This document shows, piece after piece, positions 1 to 4,925 of a stretch of DNA of 4,925 nucleotides. The number at the start of each line of letters is the position of its first letter. Position 1 is the first letter of the stretch. This stretch comes from Escherichia coli (lineage in GTDB: Bacteria; Pseudomonadota; Gammaproteobacteria; Enterobacterales; Enterobacteriaceae). The DNA is taken from NCBI RefSeq assembly GCF_003334255.1, contig NZ_QOWU01000106.1; one strand, given 5' to 3'. A program made the translations under genes and the position numbers. The notes beneath the pieces were generated by a model. The model saw nothing but the letters and a program-made list of their open reading frames with translations. It made no database searches and had not been told where the DNA came from.

Positions 1-244
1 CCGGATGCCGCCAGGCAGCCGGGAGCCGAAGGTGCGCCCGGCAGACAGGACAACACTGCAGTAGTCAGAATCAGAGCAGGAAGAAAAAGAGAATAATCAC
101 AGGGAAGGTGATGTGATTTCTGACAGGCCATAACCAGAGAAGGCGGGGGAAAAGAACGGGCGCCGCAGGCGCGCGTTCATCCCCGTTCCTGAAGGGAAAC
201 GACCTTCCTGAAGTCAGGTTGTTCATGCCCGTACAACATCAGCA

Positions 245-280
245 AGGAGAAAGGGGCTACCGGCGAACCAGCAGCCCCTT
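245..280 (-). terminator. Second hairpin downstream of hok (8-bp stem, 14-nt loop) followed by a U/C-rich tract; candidate 3'-terminal structure of full-length hok mRNA
   Basis: Plus-strand aaggggct (251-258) and agcccctt (273-280) are perfect reverse complements. On the minus strand the hairpin is followed by UCUCCUUGCU. Confidence 0.3.
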
Positions 281-316
281 TATAAAGGCGCTTCAGTAGT
301 CAGACCAGCATCAGTC

Positions 317-341
317 CTGAAAAGGCGGGCCTGCGCCCGCC
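317..341 (-). terminator. GC-rich hairpin plus U-tract about 10 nt downstream of the hok stop; hok mRNA 3' structural element or terminator
   Basis: Minus-strand stem GGCGGGC/GCCCGCC (plus coordinates 324-330 pairing with 335-341, 4-nt loop) followed on the minus strand by UUUU (complement of 320-323). Confidence 0.4.
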
Positions 342-350
342 TCCAGGTTG

Positions 351-509
351 CTACTTACCGGATTCGTAAGCCATGAAAGCCGCCACCTCCCTGTGTCCGT
401 CTCTGTAACGAATCTCGCACAGCGATTTTCGTGTCAGATAAGTGAATATCAACAGTGTGAGACACACGATCAACACACACCAGACAAGGGAACTTCGTGG
501 TAGTTTCAT
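351..509 (-). CDS. hok: Hok toxin (type I toxin-antitoxin, small membrane-depolarising peptide, 52 aa)
   Basis: Manual translation of the minus strand from ATG (complement of 507-509) to TAG (complement of 351-353) gives [52 protein letters not shown]. From memory this matches Hok of plasmid R1 / FlmA of F essentially residue for residue. It has a hydrophobic N-terminal transmembrane segment, lies wholly inside the overlapping mok frame, and sits immediately downstream of psiA as in IncF plasmids. Confidence 0.92.
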
Positions 510-567
510 GGCCTTCTTCTCCTTGCGCAAAGCGCGGTAAGAGGCTATCCTGATGTGGACTAGACAT
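355..567 (-). CDS. mok: Mok (modulation of killing) leader ORF overlapping hok; its translation is coupled to hok translation
   Basis: 70-aa ORF in the track that overlaps the hok CDS in a different frame, the defining arrangement of hok/sok-family loci. ATG at complement of 565-567 with GAGG about 8 nt upstream on the minus strand. Mok has no known independent function. Confidence 0.7.
523..551 (+). promoter_or_regulatory. Candidate sok promoter (-35 TTGCGC, -10 TATCCT, 17-bp spacer), located inside the hok/mok coding region
   Basis: Hexamers read directly from the plus strand; the position gives a transcript of Sok-like length ending at the hairpin/U-tract near 612-623. Match to the sigma-70 consensus is moderate (4/6 and 4/6). 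Confidence 0.4.
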
Positions 568-623
568 AGGGATGCCTCGTGGTGGTTAATGAAAATTAAC
601 TTACTACGGGGCTATCTTCTTTC
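558..623 (+). ncRNA. sok: Sok antisense RNA (about 65 nt), antitoxin of hok; boundaries approximate
   Basis: Plus-strand transcript predicted from a candidate promoter (TTGCGC 523-528, 17-bp spacer, TATCCT 546-551). It is antisense to the mok SD/start region (mok ATG at 565-567). It ends in a long imperfect hairpin (about 574-612, apical stem GUUAAU-GAAA-AUUAAC at 585-600) followed by a U-rich tract (613-623). Length and position match what is known of Sok; the exact 5' and 3' ends are not determined. Confidence 0.55.
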
Positions 624-685
624 TGCCACACAACACGGCAACAAACCACCTTCACGTCATGAGGCAGAAAGCCTCAAGCGCCGGG

Positions 686-720
686 CACATCATAGCCCAT
701 ATACCTGCACGCTGACCACA
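686..720 (-). promoter_or_regulatory. Candidate hok/mok mRNA promoter (minus strand: -10 TATGAT at complement of 689-694, weak -35 TGGTCA/GGTCAG around 712-718)
   Basis: Best sigma-70-like -10 on the minus strand between the psiA stop (789) and the mok start (567). A start near 682 would give a full-length mRNA of about 400 nt if the 3' end is near 285. The -35 is weak, which fits a weak constitutive hok promoter, but the assignment is uncertain. Confidence 0.25.
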
Positions 721-788: not shown

Positions 789-1508
789 TCACGCTGCCTC
801 CCGGAGTTTGTTCGGCACCATCCACCGCTCCATCTCACGGACAGCGTGACCGGCCTCTCTTGCTGCAAGACTGGCTTCCGCAATAACCTGCCAGAACGGC
901 ATATCCTGCCACTGCCAGCGTTCCATTCCGGCCAGTGACGGAAAACGCTCGCCCCACTGCCAGAACAGGGTTTCCAGGTCATGCTCTGCCACCCGGTCAC
1001 TCCAGCGTGCATGCCAGCTTCCGACTGTTTCCGGCGAATGGAATGCCAGTTCGATTTCAGCCTGAGCGACCAGCGCCTGGTACGCACGGGCTTTCTGCTC
1101 TGCCTCCCTCGCCTGCTGGCGGCTGTACTTCTGCATGACCAGCGCGGATTTATGGCGACTGCGTTCCCTGACACGAAACCGCACCGACGGGAACAAGCGC
1201 TCTGCTGCATCACCGGGAAGGGGAAGGAGGCAGACCTCGCCCTGTGTTTCAATCAGCACATCGATGGCATACAGCCACTGAAGACGGTTGCCGTGCAGTT
1301 CTTCTGCGGTCAGGGACGGCATGAAAAATCGCAGGTCAGACAGCGATATCCTGCGGCTTCCGTTCAGACAGCGGAAAAACGCACCCGCATACGGATATTC
1401 AGCCAGCGTGTTACCCTGATGGCGGCGTTTTTCGGTCTCCGCCACCGCCCGCCATGCGGCCTGTTGCTCTGTGCTGAGAGGAACCAGTGCCTGTGAACGT
1501 GCGCTCAT
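789..1508 (-). CDS. psiA: PsiA, plasmid SOS inhibition protein A (239 aa)
   Basis: 239-aa ORF beginning [19 protein letters not shown], recognised as PsiA of IncF plasmids. ATG at complement of 1506-1508 is preceded on the minus strand by GGAAGGAGG with a 6-nt spacer. The start overlaps the psiB stop (ATGA). Stop TGA at complement of 789-791. Confidence 0.95.
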
Positions 1509-1939
1509 GCCTGACCTCCTTCCGCCATCAGGATATGAATGATGTCGTTAACGCTGTACCCCTGCGCATCCAGTGACGCCGCCAGTGCCAGTGAATGGCT
1601 GACAGCTTCCGGTGCAAACCGCCGCTGCACCTGAACCACCGCAAACGGCTCACCACCGGCATTCACCAGAACCAGCACCCAGACCTGAGAGACGTCTCCC
1701 GGCGAACATAATGCCAGGTGGAAACGTTCGTGGGCTGGCGTGAAACGAACCTGGACGGGGAAAAAGCCCCCGAACTCACTGCCATACTCGCCATTCATCA
1801 TCCAGTTAGCCGGTGCGTCCACTTCACGCATCACCTCGTGAGTGAGATTACGGCGCATATCGCTTCCCGCAGCACGGATATCTTCATATTCCTGTGCGTT
1901 CATGGACTGCAGGGCATTCAGGGTCAGTTCAGTTTTCAT
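1505..1939 (-). CDS. psiB: PsiB, plasmid SOS inhibition protein B (144 aa); binds RecA and limits SOS induction in the recipient during conjugation
   Basis: ORF translating [32 protein letters not shown]..., recognised as PsiB. The track ORF begins one codon earlier at a GTG (complement of 1940-1942); I call the ATG at complement of 1937-1939, which has AAGGGAGA 7 nt upstream on the minus strand. Confidence 0.95.
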
Positions 1940-1958: not shown

Positions 1959-1981
1959 CCGCCCCGTCTCCGGCGGGGCGG
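1959..1981. other. Intercistronic GC-rich hairpin between the ParB-like gene and psiB (stem ccgccccg/cggggcgg, 7-nt loop)
   Basis: Perfect 8-bp inverted repeat 1959-1966 / 1974-1981. It lies between the ParB-like stop (1994-1996) and the psiB SD/start (1939). Confidence 0.45.
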
Positions 1982-1993
1982 TGTGGTTGTTCA

Positions 1994-3952
1994 TCAGGCG
2001 GCATCAGCCAGGTTATCGGTGCGTTCAGTGGCATCTGTCTGTGGATGTGGTGCACACATCCAGCCTGGAACCCAGCGGTTGTCTTTCATATGGTGCTCTG
2101 CATGTTCAGCCGCATCACCTTTCTTCATCTTCTCCGCGTCCCGTGCGGCACCGGACAGTCCGGCCTCATTCAGGGCTGCGATAATCTGCGGCTTTTTCAG
2201 GTGTCCGAAGAAGTTTGCTTTTGTCGGCTGCCACCAGTCGCGCATGTGGAATCCGATAGCGCTTTCCAGCGAGTCAAGCGGACTGCGTGACGTGTGACCA
2301 CACTCACGGGTCTGGACACCGTTAAGGCTGCATGCGGTGCAGAAACTGAGCAGGGATAACAGCACCTCCTGACTGAGGGACAGGAATGTCGTCATGTCCC
2401 GTGACCATCCCTCCGGCAGCAGGGCTGCAAGACGGGATTTTTCTGCCATCAGCGCCATGAATGCGGCACCTTCCTTCCCCGATGGCGCATCGCTGGTCAG
2501 CGAATAATGTTCACATTCCAGGCTGATTTGTGCTGGTTTACTGTACGCCCCGCTGCCAAACACATTCAGGCAGAGCGTCCATGCCAGCAGTGCCAGAGAT
2601 TTGTCCGGCTGCTGCATGAGTGCCGCCTGGACTGCCAGCGTGCGCTCTGAGGACATTTTCGTCAGCAACGGCAGGCTGATTTCCTCCACTGACGCTTTCT
2701 CCTGCACCTGTTCCGTGCGGTCAGCGTCGTCAGTCGCGTCATCTTCACTGCGCAACTGCACACCACGCTGGACACATACGTTGCCATAACGCCAGGACAC
2801 CACCACACCGCTTCCGGCACGTATCTCCGGCGTCCACGCTCTGACCTTCGCCATGCAGCGCATCAGCTTCATTTCTGCTTCCAGCAGGTCGGATTCCTCA
2901 CACTGGTTTTCCAGCGCGTCGTAACGCGTCATCAGTTCGTTCAGGCGTTCGTCTTCCGCCTCCGTCAGCACCGCTTCCGGCTCCGGCAGACAGCGGTATG
3001 TTCCGGCATCCTCACGGCACTCACCGACAGGCTCCATGCGCCCGGCGCACCATTCCCAGCCTTCGGCTTCCCGAAGGTGTTCAGCGACAGCCTGGAGTTT
3101 TTCCAGCAGGGCGGCATCGAGCGCCACGCGGTCGACATAACCGTCCCCGTCATCGCTGAACAAATCGGTGCGCAGTTCGTCTGGCGAGAAGGCATCAGCC
3201 CCCACGAAGCGGAATTTACTGTTCCCAGCCACCGCCACTTCACTTTCGGTCACCAGACGACGAATGGTCTGTACTTCCGGTTTACCGCCCCATCCCGACT
3301 GACAGGCGGCTTCAAACACCTGCACCTGACGCGCGGTGTCGTTCTCCAGCGCCAGCGCCTGACAGTGTTCGGTGGTGATGCGGTCTTCTGCCAGCGCATC
3401 GAGGATGACAGGCGCAAGGTCAGCCAGTTTCAGCATTCGCTGAACGTGGCGGGGTGAATAGCCCAGCAAATCACCGATGTGTGCAGGTGTTTTGCCTTCC
3501 TGCGCCATTGCGCGGAATCCGGCAATCTGTTCGGCAGGGTGCATATCCCGACGATGACCGTTCTCGGTCATTGATGCGGCAGTCGCCAGCTCCTGCGGAA
3601 TAATTTTTACGCGGACAGGCCAGTCAGCCGGAATGATGTCACGCTCTGCCAGCATGTTGAGTGCTGCCAGTCGGCGACCACCTGCGGCGACACCGTAACG
3701 GTCACCTGGCAGGGCATGAACAACCAGATTCTGCAGCAGGCCGACTCCCTTAATGGAATCAGCCAGTTCACTGACGGACTCCGCAGAATACGGCACCGTG
3801 CGCACATTCAGCGGTGATTTAATCAGTGAATCCAGCGGCACGCTCACTTCCTCCGTCTGCGCCAGCAGGGCAGACAGTGCAGTTTCCTGCGTTTTTACAG
3901 ATTTACGGCTTGCTTTGCGGGTGGTTTCTGGTTCACACTTCGTTACAGGCAT
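1994..3952 (-). CDS. ParB/Srx N-terminal-domain protein (652 aa) with HTH and a long uncharacterised C-terminal region; leading-region ParB-like protein
   Basis: The N-terminal roughly 200 aa shows ParB N-domain hallmarks: box-I-like LIKSPLNVRT, arginine-rich box-II-like VAAGGRRLAALNMLAE, and a downstream HTH-like segment TPAHIGDLLGYSPRHVQRMLKLADL. The remaining roughly 430 aa has no motif I recognise (no DPPY/NPPY methyltransferase motif, no obvious nuclease motif). Start called at the second ATG (complement of 3950-3952), which has AAGGGG with a 6-nt spacer; the track's first ATG (3958) abuts the SD. Confidence 0.88.
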   Translation of the reverse strand: MPVTKCEPETTRKASRKSVKTQETALSALLAQTEEVSVPLDSLIKSPLNVRTVPYSAESVSELADSIKGVGLLQNLVVHALPGDRYGVAAGGRRLAALNMLAERDIIPADWPVRVKIIPQELATAASMTENGHRRDMHPAEQIAGFRAMAQEGKTPAHIGDLLGYSPRHVQRMLKLADLAPVILDALAEDRITTEHCQALALENDTARQVQVFEAACQSGWGGKPEVQTIRRLVTESEVAVAGNSKFRFVGADAFSPDELRTDLFSDDGDGYVDRVALDAALLEKLQAVAEHLREAEGWEWCAGRMEPVGECREDAGTYRCLPEPEAVLTEAEDERLNELMTRYDALENQCEESDLLEAEMKLMRCMAKVRAWTPEIRAGSGVVVSWRYGNVCVQRGVQLRSEDDATDDADRTEQVQEKASVEEISLPLLTKMSSERTLAVQAALMQQPDKSLALLAWTLCLNVFGSGAYSKPAQISLECEHYSLTSDAPSGKEGAAFMALMAEKSRLAALLPEGWSRDMTTFLSLSQEVLLSLLSFCTACSLNGVQTRECGHTSRSPLDSLESAIGFHMRDWWQPTKANFFGHLKKPQIIAALNEAGLSGAARDAEKMKKGDAAEHAEHHMKDNRWVPGWMCAPHPQTDATERTDNLADAA

Positions 3953-3981
3953 AATCATCCCCTTATAATTGCTTATGTCCT

Positions 3982-4003
3982 GCCGGACGTTCGCGCGTCC
4001 GGC
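3982..4003. other. Intercistronic GC-rich hairpin between the DUF905 gene and the ParB-like gene (stem gccggacg/cgtccggc, 6-nt loop)
   Basis: Perfect 8-bp inverted repeat 3982-3989 / 3996-4003. It lies between the DUF905 stop (4011) and the ParB-like SD/start (3952). Confidence 0.45.
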
Positions 4004-4010
4004 ACCTCTC

Positions 4011-4244
4011 TTACTTAAGAATCCCGAAATCCCTGATGTACCGGTTCATCCAGTACCCGGCACAGTCCTCAAAATTCCAGGAGCGCCAGATCAACGTGCC
4101 ATCCTGACGGACAACCAGGCGAAAATGCGTTCCCTGATCATCCTCGATAAAGACATTCCGGTACTGTGCGGCAACGGCTTCGGCCTGTTTGCGGGTAAAA
4201 GGACCGTCCGGCAGTCCCTGAAGTATTCTGAAATATTCGCTCAT
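4011..4244 (-). CDS. DUF905 family protein (YkfF-like), 77 aa, function unknown
   Basis: Translation [77 protein letters not shown] shares the GPFTRxQAxAV...EDDQGxHFRLVVR...WRxWNFE...NRYIR core with E. coli cryptic-prophage YkfF, as I recall it. The track ORF starts at a GTG (4271); I call the ATG at complement of 4242-4244, preceded by GGAGAG on the minus strand. Confidence 0.8.
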
Positions 4245-4262
4245 CCTCATCTCTCCGGTGAT

Positions 4263-4281
4263 GCCCCGCACTGGACGGGGC
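4263..4281. other. Intercistronic GC-rich hairpin between ssb and the DUF905 gene (stem gccccg/cggggc, 7-nt loop)
   Basis: Perfect 6-bp inverted repeat 4263-4268 / 4276-4281, read directly. It lies between the ssb stop (4300) and the DUF905 SD/start (4244) and is not followed by a U-tract in mRNA sense. Confidence 0.45.
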
Positions 4282-4299
4282 GGTTGTCACTGTCTTTCG

Positions 4300-4827
4300 T
4301 TAGAACGGAATGTCGTCATCGAAGTCATACGCGGGTTCAGACGGCTGCTGAGGCTCCGGCTGCGCGGCCTTACGTCCACGGCCTTTCGTTTTCGCGCCTC
4401 CTTTTTTCGGTTCCGGCTGTGATTCCGGCTGAGGCTGACCGCTGAACTGTTGCGCCTCTTCCGGCTGAGTCTGAGTACCTGCGGCACGTCCCAGCATCTG
4501 CATGGTGCCCGTGGTCTTAACAAGAATTTCGGTGACGTAACGGGTGATACCGTTATCCTCCCAGCTACGGGTGCGAAGCTGACCTTCGATGTAGACCTGC
4601 GCGCCCTTGCGCAGATACTCACCAGCCACTTCCGCGAGCTTGCCGAACAGCACCACGCGATGCCATTCTGTCTGCTCCCGTATCTCCCCCGTCTGTTTGT
4701 CGCGCCAGCTTTCTGACGTGGCCACCTGCAGGTTTGCCACTGCGCCCCCGTTTGGGATGTAACGGACTTCCGGATCTTTTCCCAGACGACCGACAAGAAT
4801 GACCTTGTTAATGCCACGAACTGCCAT
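4300..4827 (-). CDS. ssb: Plasmid-encoded single-stranded DNA-binding protein SSB (175 aa)
   Basis: Translation [48 protein letters not shown]... is a canonical OB-fold SSB N-terminus. The C-terminus has a Gly/Pro/Gln-rich linker and the acidic tip [11 protein letters not shown] at complement of 4825-4827 is preceded on the minus strand by AAGGAGA with a 7-nt spacer. The track's extra 13 N-terminal codons (to 4866) have no SD and are rejected. Stop TAA at complement of 4300-4302. Confidence 0.95.
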
Positions 4828-4925
4828 GATGTGTCTCCTTCTGTTGATGTTTTCAGCCCCCATCATCTGTTGAGTTTCGGGAGCCGCGGTTTTGACGTTT
4901 TGCGGGGACCTGCTCTTTGTTCCCT

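Follow-up and report, generated by a model that had tools for sequence, protein, structure and literature searches.

What does the small gene do that conjugative plasmids carry between ssb and a ParB-like gene? The window, the whole 4,925-nucleotide stretch of Escherichia coli DNA analysed here, contains one such gene on the minus strand (positions 4011..4244). It encodes a DUF905 (UPF0401) protein of 77 amino acids (9.2 kDa, pI 6.55), the orthologue of F yfjA (= yubL) and a paralogue of the chromosomal ykfF. SSB, HerB and PsiB, which are encoded in the same early operon, have roles, and DUF905 is one of the conspicuous remaining gaps in plasmid establishment. Thousands of resistance plasmids, IncF-type and related, carry the family. 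An earlier note on this DNA recognized the gene as DUF905, described it as tightly linked to ssb and suggested a role in establishment or anti-defence. This recognition is a correct annotation of a known family and not a discovery. Earlier papers describe the family with its neighbours, its enrichment in the leading region and its early expression, and they also state its linkage (PMC11541004, supplementary table 3; PMC12826799; PMC10104558; bioRxiv 10.1101/2021.12.17.473221). The additions made here are modest: the constant partner on plasmids is the ParB-like gene and not ssb, a role as DNA mimic is unlikely, and conserved hairpins flank the gene.

We observed a single well-delimited open reading frame on the minus strand, with its ATG at 4244, 77 codons and a TAA stop at 4011-4013. 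A Shine-Dalgarno sequence (GGAG, 4253..4256, minus strand) could be read from the sequence 8 nt 5' of the ATG. In other loci of the plasmid type (defined below), an equivalent AGGAG is found ahead of the start codon. The ssb stop codon lies at 4300-4302, which leaves a 55-nt spacer (4245-4299) between ssb and DUF905. These coordinates, the gene's own Shine-Dalgarno sequence and the spacer length agreed with the earlier reading. RefSeq holds the same 77-aa form (WP_000006004.1, ‘DUF905 domain-containing protein’). An 86-aa reading from a GTG at 4271 was rejected; it would cross the intercistronic hairpin, and RefSeq has the 77-aa form. On the other side, 52-58 nt separate the DUF905 stop from the start of the ParB-like gene at 3952 (3958 according to the mechanical ORF list). 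Across 79 homologous loci the median pairwise dN/dS of DUF905 was 0.18 (1393 pairs, <0.5 in 99.8%), a crude figure with dS near saturation. The RefSeq form, this dN/dS value and the Pfam and structure matches given below show that the ORF is a real protein-coding gene under purifying selection.

A profile search placed the protein in DUF905 (Pfam PF06006, E = 4.7e-36; residues 10-76, model positions 2-69 of 70), so the family assignment stood. The only PHROG match was family 8779 (E 5.3e-35), which is without known function, and NCBIfam holds no DUF905 family model. The protein also matched the NMR structure of E. coli YkfF (2HJJ, E 4.9e-24). Its fold is that of this solved member: a helix, three antiparallel strands and a second helix. 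We found no structural relatives of DUF905 other than YkfF in the PDB or AFDB. The motifs that had been singled out as a conserved core (FTR, EDDQG.HFRLVVR, WR.WNFE and NRYI) fall on columns that the family alignment shows to be conserved. Eight positions never vary among 79 DUF905 sequences (N30, E34, D35, D36, F41, W53, R54 and F58), and the window protein has all eight.

The whole window is 100% identical to positions 76908-81832 of the IncFIA/FIB/FII plasmid p1NQ3 (NZ_CP024721.1). The best plasmid matches seemed at first to differ from the window by 548 bp, but this came from the joining of separate BLAST pieces; window positions 1-700 correspond to NZ_CP024721.1 76908-77607. All genes in the window lie on the minus strand, in the order hok/sok, psiA, psiB, the 652-aa ParB-like gene, DUF905 and ssb. 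The sok element of hok/sok matched Rfam at 507-683. psiA (789..1508; an ORF matched as PsiA across loci) overlaps psiB by 4 nt, and psiB, the conjugation SOS inhibitor, spans 1505..1939 (annotation and ORF). The ParB-like gene (1994..3952; annotation and ParB domain matches) is F yfjB (= yubM) and IncI yfhA, and its product is named HerB in a 2026 preprint (PMC13370423). Plasmid ssb (4300..4827; ORF and annotation) is the first cistron of the array and encodes the C-terminal tip DFDDDIPF. On p1NQ3 the array lies, all on one strand, between the oriT-proximal end with traM/SLT/DUF932 and a block made up of antirestriction, DUF1380 and methylase genes. From these flanks, the ssb-DUF905-ParB-like-psiB-psiA array is in the leading region, with the transferred strand as template. 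A scan of the minus strand at 3800-4925 found neither promoter-like nor terminator-like sites, and the DUF905 gene is therefore read as an internal cistron, the second in ssb - yfjA - herB - psiB - psiA. Neighbours of DUF905 were co-oriented with it in all of 77 loci.

The F plasmid (NC_002483) has the same order as the window (ssb, DUF905, ParB-like gene, psiB). F YfjA (YubL in UniProt) is equal in length to the window protein, 83% identical to it and in the same slot between ssb and the ParB-like gene. The two differ by 13 substitutions, including H37/E39/Q40 in F versus Q37/T39/H40 in the window. The F DUF905 gene is yfjA by position, an identification that rests on gene order in the paper and on the RefSeq record and not on a named annotation. 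The earlier description of the gene as ‘inserted’ between ssb and the ParB-like gene is misleading, as it is a resident member of the array in F and many other plasmids.

Expression data are available for this orthologue. YfjA-sfGFP, like SSB, YfjB and PsiB, was present before the plasmid had become double-stranded, peaked at ~5 min and ceased to be produced after 25-35 min (Couturier et al. 2023, PMC9849209). YfjA was undetectable in donors, and its production in transconjugants was Frpo2-dependent (PMC9849209). RNA-seq after donor elimination likewise showed transcripts to be enriched in transconjugants (PMC12672017). The expectation of early expression on incoming DNA is thus borne out by published work on F. 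Deletion of Frpo2 silenced the whole array and left F transfer frequency between K-12 strains unchanged (PMC9849209). In IncI, mutations truncating ykfF and the ParB-like gene raised transfer in one host (PMC10104558).

In F, Frpo2 is located upstream of ssb-yfjA-yfjB-psiB-psiA (PMC9849209). A region of ~470 nt 5' of ssb, of Frpo2 type by its fold, begins at the end of our window (4867..4925, minus strand); 59 nt lie in the window and the rest beyond it. Folded as ssDNA, the p1NQ3 region (L001 17376-17850) gave a single long, imperfect hairpin (dG -143.5 kcal/mol, z -13.5), and 0/100 shuffles folded as well. By analogy, this hairpin fits the Frpo2 single-strand promoter of F.

DUF905 is abundant on plasmids. 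It was present in at least 5000 PLSDB plasmids, and 4522 of the matches listed were conjugative. It is enriched in leading regions, where it ranks second of the 300 largest families, with 4709 members at a median of the 12th ORF from oriT (FDR p = 0; Samuel et al. 2024, PMC11541004, supplementary table 3). It has been reported near psiB/psiA and as enriched in narrow-host-range plasmids (PMC12826799), within the IncI ssi3 operon (PMC10104558), and, on the Shigella plasmid pKSR100, in the gene cluster with ssb, psiA and psiB. Of 5426 complete E. coli genomes, 3980 (about three quarters) had a match, with 4526 of the places on plasmids and 2932 on chromosomes. When one genome was scanned per species (100,044 species), 92 loci emerged, and only 168 clusters at 50% identity matched among 1.84 billion representatives (E ≤ 0.001). 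All credible genomic matches were in Enterobacterales; the others were contigs resembling enterobacterial contamination in non-enterobacterial assemblies. Only one of 50,697 phage records had a match, a 125-aa ORF amid small hypothetical genes of a Cronobacter phage, and the chromosomal ‘cryptic prophage’ homes of the family are therefore not phage-like in this respect.

To survey the neighbourhoods, we predicted the ORFs of 80 loci and compared them with a set of 25 reference proteins drawn from the window, p1NQ3 and one island; 79 loci were scored. Two architectures covered 77 of the 79 (plasmid type, 32; island type, 45). The plasmid-type order is [methylase ... antirestriction ... ssb or ardA] - DUF905 - ParB-like - psiB - psiA. 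The ParB-like gene was directly downstream of DUF905 in 30 of 32 plasmid-type loci, at a spacing of 60-85 nt, and ssb was directly upstream in 17 of 32. Elsewhere ArdA or other genes precede DUF905, with ArdA a few hundred bases upstream in at least four plasmid-type loci without ssb. The claim of tight linkage to ssb thus stood for the 17 loci and failed for the remaining plasmid-type loci and for all islands, and the near-invariant neighbour is the ParB-like gene.

Island-type loci have the order GTPase - [DUF932] - HTH - variable secreted/lipoprotein genes - DUF905 - [DUF932] - ArdB/KlcA-like antirestriction - RadC/JAB - DUF987 - CbeA - CbtA. Directly downstream of DUF905 we observed an antirestriction gene in 23 and DUF932 in 21 (44/45 loci, different species), with RadC/JAB usually next. 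E. coli K-12 shows the pattern in its CP4-6 cryptic element (yafZ(DUF932)...ykfB-ykfF-yafX-ykfG(RadC-like)-ykfH-yafW-ykfI). There, ykfF follows ykfB and precedes the antirestriction-like yafX, and the neighbourhood lacks ssb, a ParB-like gene and psiB. The island pattern recurred in two other E. coli chromosomes and around one divergent metagenomic DUF905 member. These loci confirmed that chromosomal homologues sit beside antirestriction-like and RadC-like genes. A canonical intrinsic terminator followed DUF905 in 42 of 42 island-type loci examined, unlike the window gene. Adjacency to the antirestriction genes there does not prove co-transcription with them. ssb, a HerB-like gene and psiB occurred in 0/45 island-type loci. 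In a rarer third setting, on P1-like contigs, a DUF905-domain protein with an N-terminal extension adjoins the DarA/DdrB antirestriction operon. The antirestriction link of DUF905 is real in every setting, and its ssb link is looser than had been described.

We compared the proteins of the two main settings. In the core alignment, 25 of 65 positions were at least 90% conserved in plasmid-type and island-type DUF905 alike, including N30, E34-D35-D36, H40, R42, R46, W53, R54 and F58. No residue fixed in one type and different in the other was found in the same alignment. Judged by this conservation, the island-type and plasmid-type proteins would be functionally equivalent. Some family members are longer: the extra regions of four DUF905 proteins (P0179, P0135, P0141 and P0154) matched no PHROG family, and Pfam gave no match to the P0179 N-terminal extension. 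A protein joining DUF905 to a 55-residue DnaE finger fragment (P0160) was set aside, as it sits on a lone metagenome scaffold of 625 bp and is a probable chimera.

A role in anti-defence found no direct support. F transfer was unchanged by the Frpo2 deletion, and comparisons with known anti-defence proteins were negative. The window protein matched 0 PADLOC families, and according to Samuel et al. DUF905 matches no known anti-CRISPR or antirestriction protein in sequence or structure (PMC11541004). Our literature search found no published assay of defence inhibition by DUF905. ArdA and Ocr-type DNA mimics and ArdB/KlcA are the natural comparison: Ard proteins are recurrent neighbours of DUF905 on plasmids and islands, and are also early leading-region products. 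The ArdA/Ocr-type mimics are strongly acidic, whereas the window protein is near neutral, with 10 acidic and 10 basic residues (pI 6.55; family median pI 5.7, net charge -1), and has no sequence or structure match to Ard proteins. From this composition, DUF905 is unlikely to be a DNA mimic. The same literature search found no function assigned to DUF905, YkfF, YubL or YfjA, in agreement with the earlier statement that no function is established.

We consider that DUF905 may work during establishment by binding a host factor stoichiometrically, and give this reading a probability of roughly 40%. In this mechanism, a Frpo2-type promoter on the incoming strand would drive brief YfjA synthesis in the new transconjugant and stay silent in established donors, as in F. 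The protein would then bind, through its conserved mixed-charge and aromatic patch, a host protein common to every Enterobacterales recipient. This binding would help the new element to establish by host subversion or counter-defence, much as PsiB acts via RecA. PsiB, the leading-region SOS inhibitor that binds host RecA, is like DUF905 in being small, non-enzymatic and a product of the same array with the same early burst. It differs from DUF905 in having no sequence or fold relation to it, and in being absent from the chromosomal islands that bear DUF905.

Several observations point to this reading. At 9 kDa and with a single domain, DUF905 appears too small and featureless for an enzyme, and seems to be neither an acidic mimic nor a basic nucleic-acid binder. 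Stoichiometric binding would be the most economical activity, because the domain has ~65 residues, is near neutral and has no enzyme-like relatives. The function is probably independent of SSB, HerB and PsiB, since the same residues are conserved in islands without ssb, herB or psiB. The target is probably a host factor of Enterobacterales, because the family is confined to this order while its plasmid neighbours range wider; a mere passenger gene of one lineage would show such a narrow range as well. The antirestriction genes found beside DUF905 in every setting also favour this reading. Against it stand the unchanged F transfer after Frpo2 deletion, the raised transfer of the IncI truncation mutants and the negative comparisons with anti-defence proteins. 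The conserved charged residues could, moreover, serve the fold as salt bridges and need not form a binding surface. In a fuller and more tentative version, DUF905 would be an Enterobacterales-specific small early effector, made in the first minutes after a plasmid, and perhaps a mobilised P4-integrase island, enters as ssDNA. Via the E-D-D / Arg / Trp patch it would neutralise a host factor, for example a defence or DNA-processing protein, without SSB, HerB or PsiB. If true, this would add a new member to the leading-region establishment functions.

Four other explanations were weighed against host-factor binding, and the nearest at hand concerns HerB. HerB, which shares the zygotic induction of DUF905, is a CTP-binding, clamp-like ParB-like protein that reprograms host transcription, according to a July 2026 bioRxiv preprint in which YfjA goes unmentioned (PMC13370423). 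DUF905 could be its accessory, for example a loading partner or a modulator of the CTP switch, co-translated just before it. Such a partnership would account for the constant spacing of 60-85 nt in 30/32 plasmid-type loci. It would also suit the 34-nt overlap of the two genes reported in IncI plasmids (PMC10104558), the room that the HerB authors leave for a loading partner (PMC13370423) and the DUF905-domain protein near a DdrB-ParB gene in P1-like contigs. Yet co-occurrence was not strict (30/32 plasmid-type, 0/45 island-type loci), and the 45 island-type loci carry DUF905 with the same conserved residues and no HerB-like gene. HerB, an unrelated 652-aa protein, works without DUF905: expressed alone and ectopically in plasmid-free cells, it forms foci at normal levels (PMC13370423). 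Its homologues are spread over Alpha-, Beta- and Gammaproteobacteria and further afield (PMC13370423), a far wider range than that of DUF905, which is confined to Enterobacterales. We consider a HerB accessory unlikely. The looser partner, SSB, offers a different explanation, in which DUF905 binds the acidic C-terminal tip of plasmid or host SSB and tunes which SSB partners reach the incoming strand. The conserved Arg and aromatic residues are like those of SSB-tip pockets, and ssb is directly upstream in 17/32 plasmid-type loci; it is not upstream in about half of the plasmid loci, nor in any island locus. A fused AlphaFold model (DUF905-(GGS)10-SSB tail) gave the tip a pLDDT of 50-60 versus 37-40 for the linker, but docking was not confident, with tip pLDDT <70 and no secondary structure. 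Database fusions of SSB and DUF905 turned out to be frameshifted or read-through ORFs. Those rejected as functional hints were two frameshift-fused translations (P0175, P0195) and a read-through UniProt entry (A0A220SXH4, 274 aa, ‘SSB’). Binding of the SSB tip is the least probable of the explanations considered, and we regard it as very unlikely.

The topology of the domain and its exposed Arg and Trp residues would suit a small nucleic-acid binder, which could use an exposed sheet face (R42, V44, R46, W53) to hold ssDNA or RNA stem-loops. It could act on the incoming strand, or on the intercistronic hairpins and so on mRNA stability or read-through. The charge of the protein argues against this, as does the finding of no hairpin motif in common, and we judge it about as improbable as the HerB accessory. 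A role outside establishment was weighed too, with DUF905 as a lineage-specific passenger or as a regulator in the resident double-stranded state, and its leading-region position historical. The absence of a transfer phenotype when the F operon promoter was deleted is in its favour (PMC9849209). So is the arrangement in islands, where DUF905 closes a unit containing variable lipoprotein genes at its 3' side, before a terminator. A sliding 240-nt DNA fold also gave no clear outlier, and no clear Frpo-like hairpin, near 7 island copies, in a scan that made the known region clear in only 1/5 plasmid loci. Against this stand the strong purifying selection, with 25 positions conserved across both settings, and the extreme conservation of position, orientation and spacing in thousands of conjugative plasmids. 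YfjA was, moreover, seen in transconjugants only and not in vegetatively growing donors (PMC9849209). A purely passenger or resident role thus seems to us no likelier than nucleic-acid binding.

The DUF905 gene is bracketed by conserved hairpins, and any deletion of it should spare both. In the ssb-DUF905 spacer we observed a GC-rich stem-loop on the minus strand (4263..4281; 7 bp, CCCCGUC..loop..GCGGGGC region) without a U-tract. Its RNA fold of -15.2 kcal/mol (z -0.98) was not exceptional versus shuffles by itself, and a GC hairpin precedes DUF905 in 17 of 17 plasmid-type loci with ssb. Directly 3' of the DUF905 stop lies a second stem-loop on the minus strand (3981..4004; 9 bp, UGCCGGACG/CGUCCGGCA; no U-tract), which folds at -17.8 kcal/mol (z -2.69). 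A hairpin was present after the stop in 29 of 29 plasmid-type loci. In a 10-sequence subset of one stem type, compensatory double changes occurred at 4 of 10 pairs, 97.9% of cells were paired, and 0/500 shuffles reached the covariation score. The ParB-like-psiB spacer holds a further GC stem-loop on the minus strand (1959..1981; 8 bp, no U-tract; -18.2 kcal/mol, z -2.19). The hairpins in plasmid-type spacers downstream of DUF905 fall into two stem types, which differ in length. The spacer hairpins of the array could protect mRNA 3' ends, take part in processing, or give structure to the transferred strand.

Each spacer of the ssb, DUF905, ParB-like and psiB array carried a GC-rich stem-loop without a U-tract. 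On the minus strand of the window, these stem-loops were located at 4263-4281 (between ssb and DUF905), 3981-4004 (between DUF905 and the ParB-like gene) and 1959-1981 (between the ParB-like gene and psiB). We observed the stem-loop 5' of DUF905 in all 17 plasmid-type loci with ssb, and the stem-loop 3' of DUF905 in all plasmid-type loci compared (29/29). Within a 10-sequence subset representing one stem type, four of the 10 pairs of the 3' stem-loop showed compensatory changes. The spacer stem-loops may protect mRNA 3' ends, act in processing or give structure to the transferred strand.

In chromosomal islands, the DUF905 stop codon was directly followed by a GC stem and T-run forming a canonical intrinsic terminator in 42/42 loci (L018-L086). 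DUF905 therefore closes a transcription unit there, and any read-through towards the DUF932, antirestriction and RadC genes would have to get past the terminator.

Four plasmid-type loci that have no ssb directly upstream (L019, L028, L032 and L034) carried a co-oriented ArdA antirestriction gene (Pfam, E = 6.2e-34) at ~600-800 nt 5' of DUF905. Three further loci encoded a 161-aa protein with an unassigned N-terminal extension and a C-terminal DUF905 domain (L006, 8001-8486; L007, 1612-2097; L008, 706-1191). This protein was encoded ~600 nt from a DdrB-ParB, DarA and LydB block that lies on the opposite strand and is known from P1-like phage-plasmids as the Dar antirestriction operon.

Upstream of ssb, the single-stranded DNA was predicted to fold into a single long imperfect hairpin (positions 17376-17850 of locus L001, from the identical plasmid p1NQ3; ΔG = −143.5 kcal/mol, z = −13.5), of which only the edge lies inside the window (4867-4925). 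This structure is consistent with the single-strand promoter Frpo2 described for F.

The 77-aa form of the DUF905 protein is the one called by RefSeq. Database versions of 79 to 90 aa, including P0003 and C7SA20 (86 aa each), arise because there are in-frame upstream starts at ATG 4250 and GTG 4271; this region (4245-4271) overlaps the spacer hairpin. On the plus strand, a promoter-like site (GTTACA-16-TATAAT, 3942-3969; 10/12 matches) is directed from the spacer between DUF905 and the ParB-like gene antisense into DUF905, with ~0.5 such sites expected by chance across the region scanned.

Database entries in which SSB and DUF905 appear as one protein (P0175, P0195 and UniProt A0A220SXH4) were rejected as frameshifted or read-through translations. 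Such joined entries are likely the source of the "SSB" label that the supplementary table of Samuel et al. 2024 (PMC11541004) gives to the DUF905 family. The plasmid SSBs of the plasmid-type loci had two versions of the C-terminal tip, ...DDDIPF/...DDSIPF and ...DDDAPF, the latter differing from the canonical host SSB tip in the residue preceding Pro-Phe.

Gene arrays typical of enterobacterial leading regions or islands also occurred on contigs in assemblies of non-enterobacterial organisms: Streptomyces morookaense (L010, L030), Acinetobacter idrijaensis (L012), Chryseobacterium sp. 18061 (L038, L053) and Clostridia MAGs (L011, L013, L027). The DUF905 proteins on these contigs were 63-86% identical to the window protein. 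These occurrences most likely reflect contamination or mis-binning and not a broader host range.

Window 351-683 (minus strand) is the flm/hok-sok post-segregational killing locus, which marks the end of the array nearest oriT. Here a toxin ORF of the hok family begins its span at 351, and the sok antisense RNA occupies 507-683 (Rfam RF01794, 88.9 bits).
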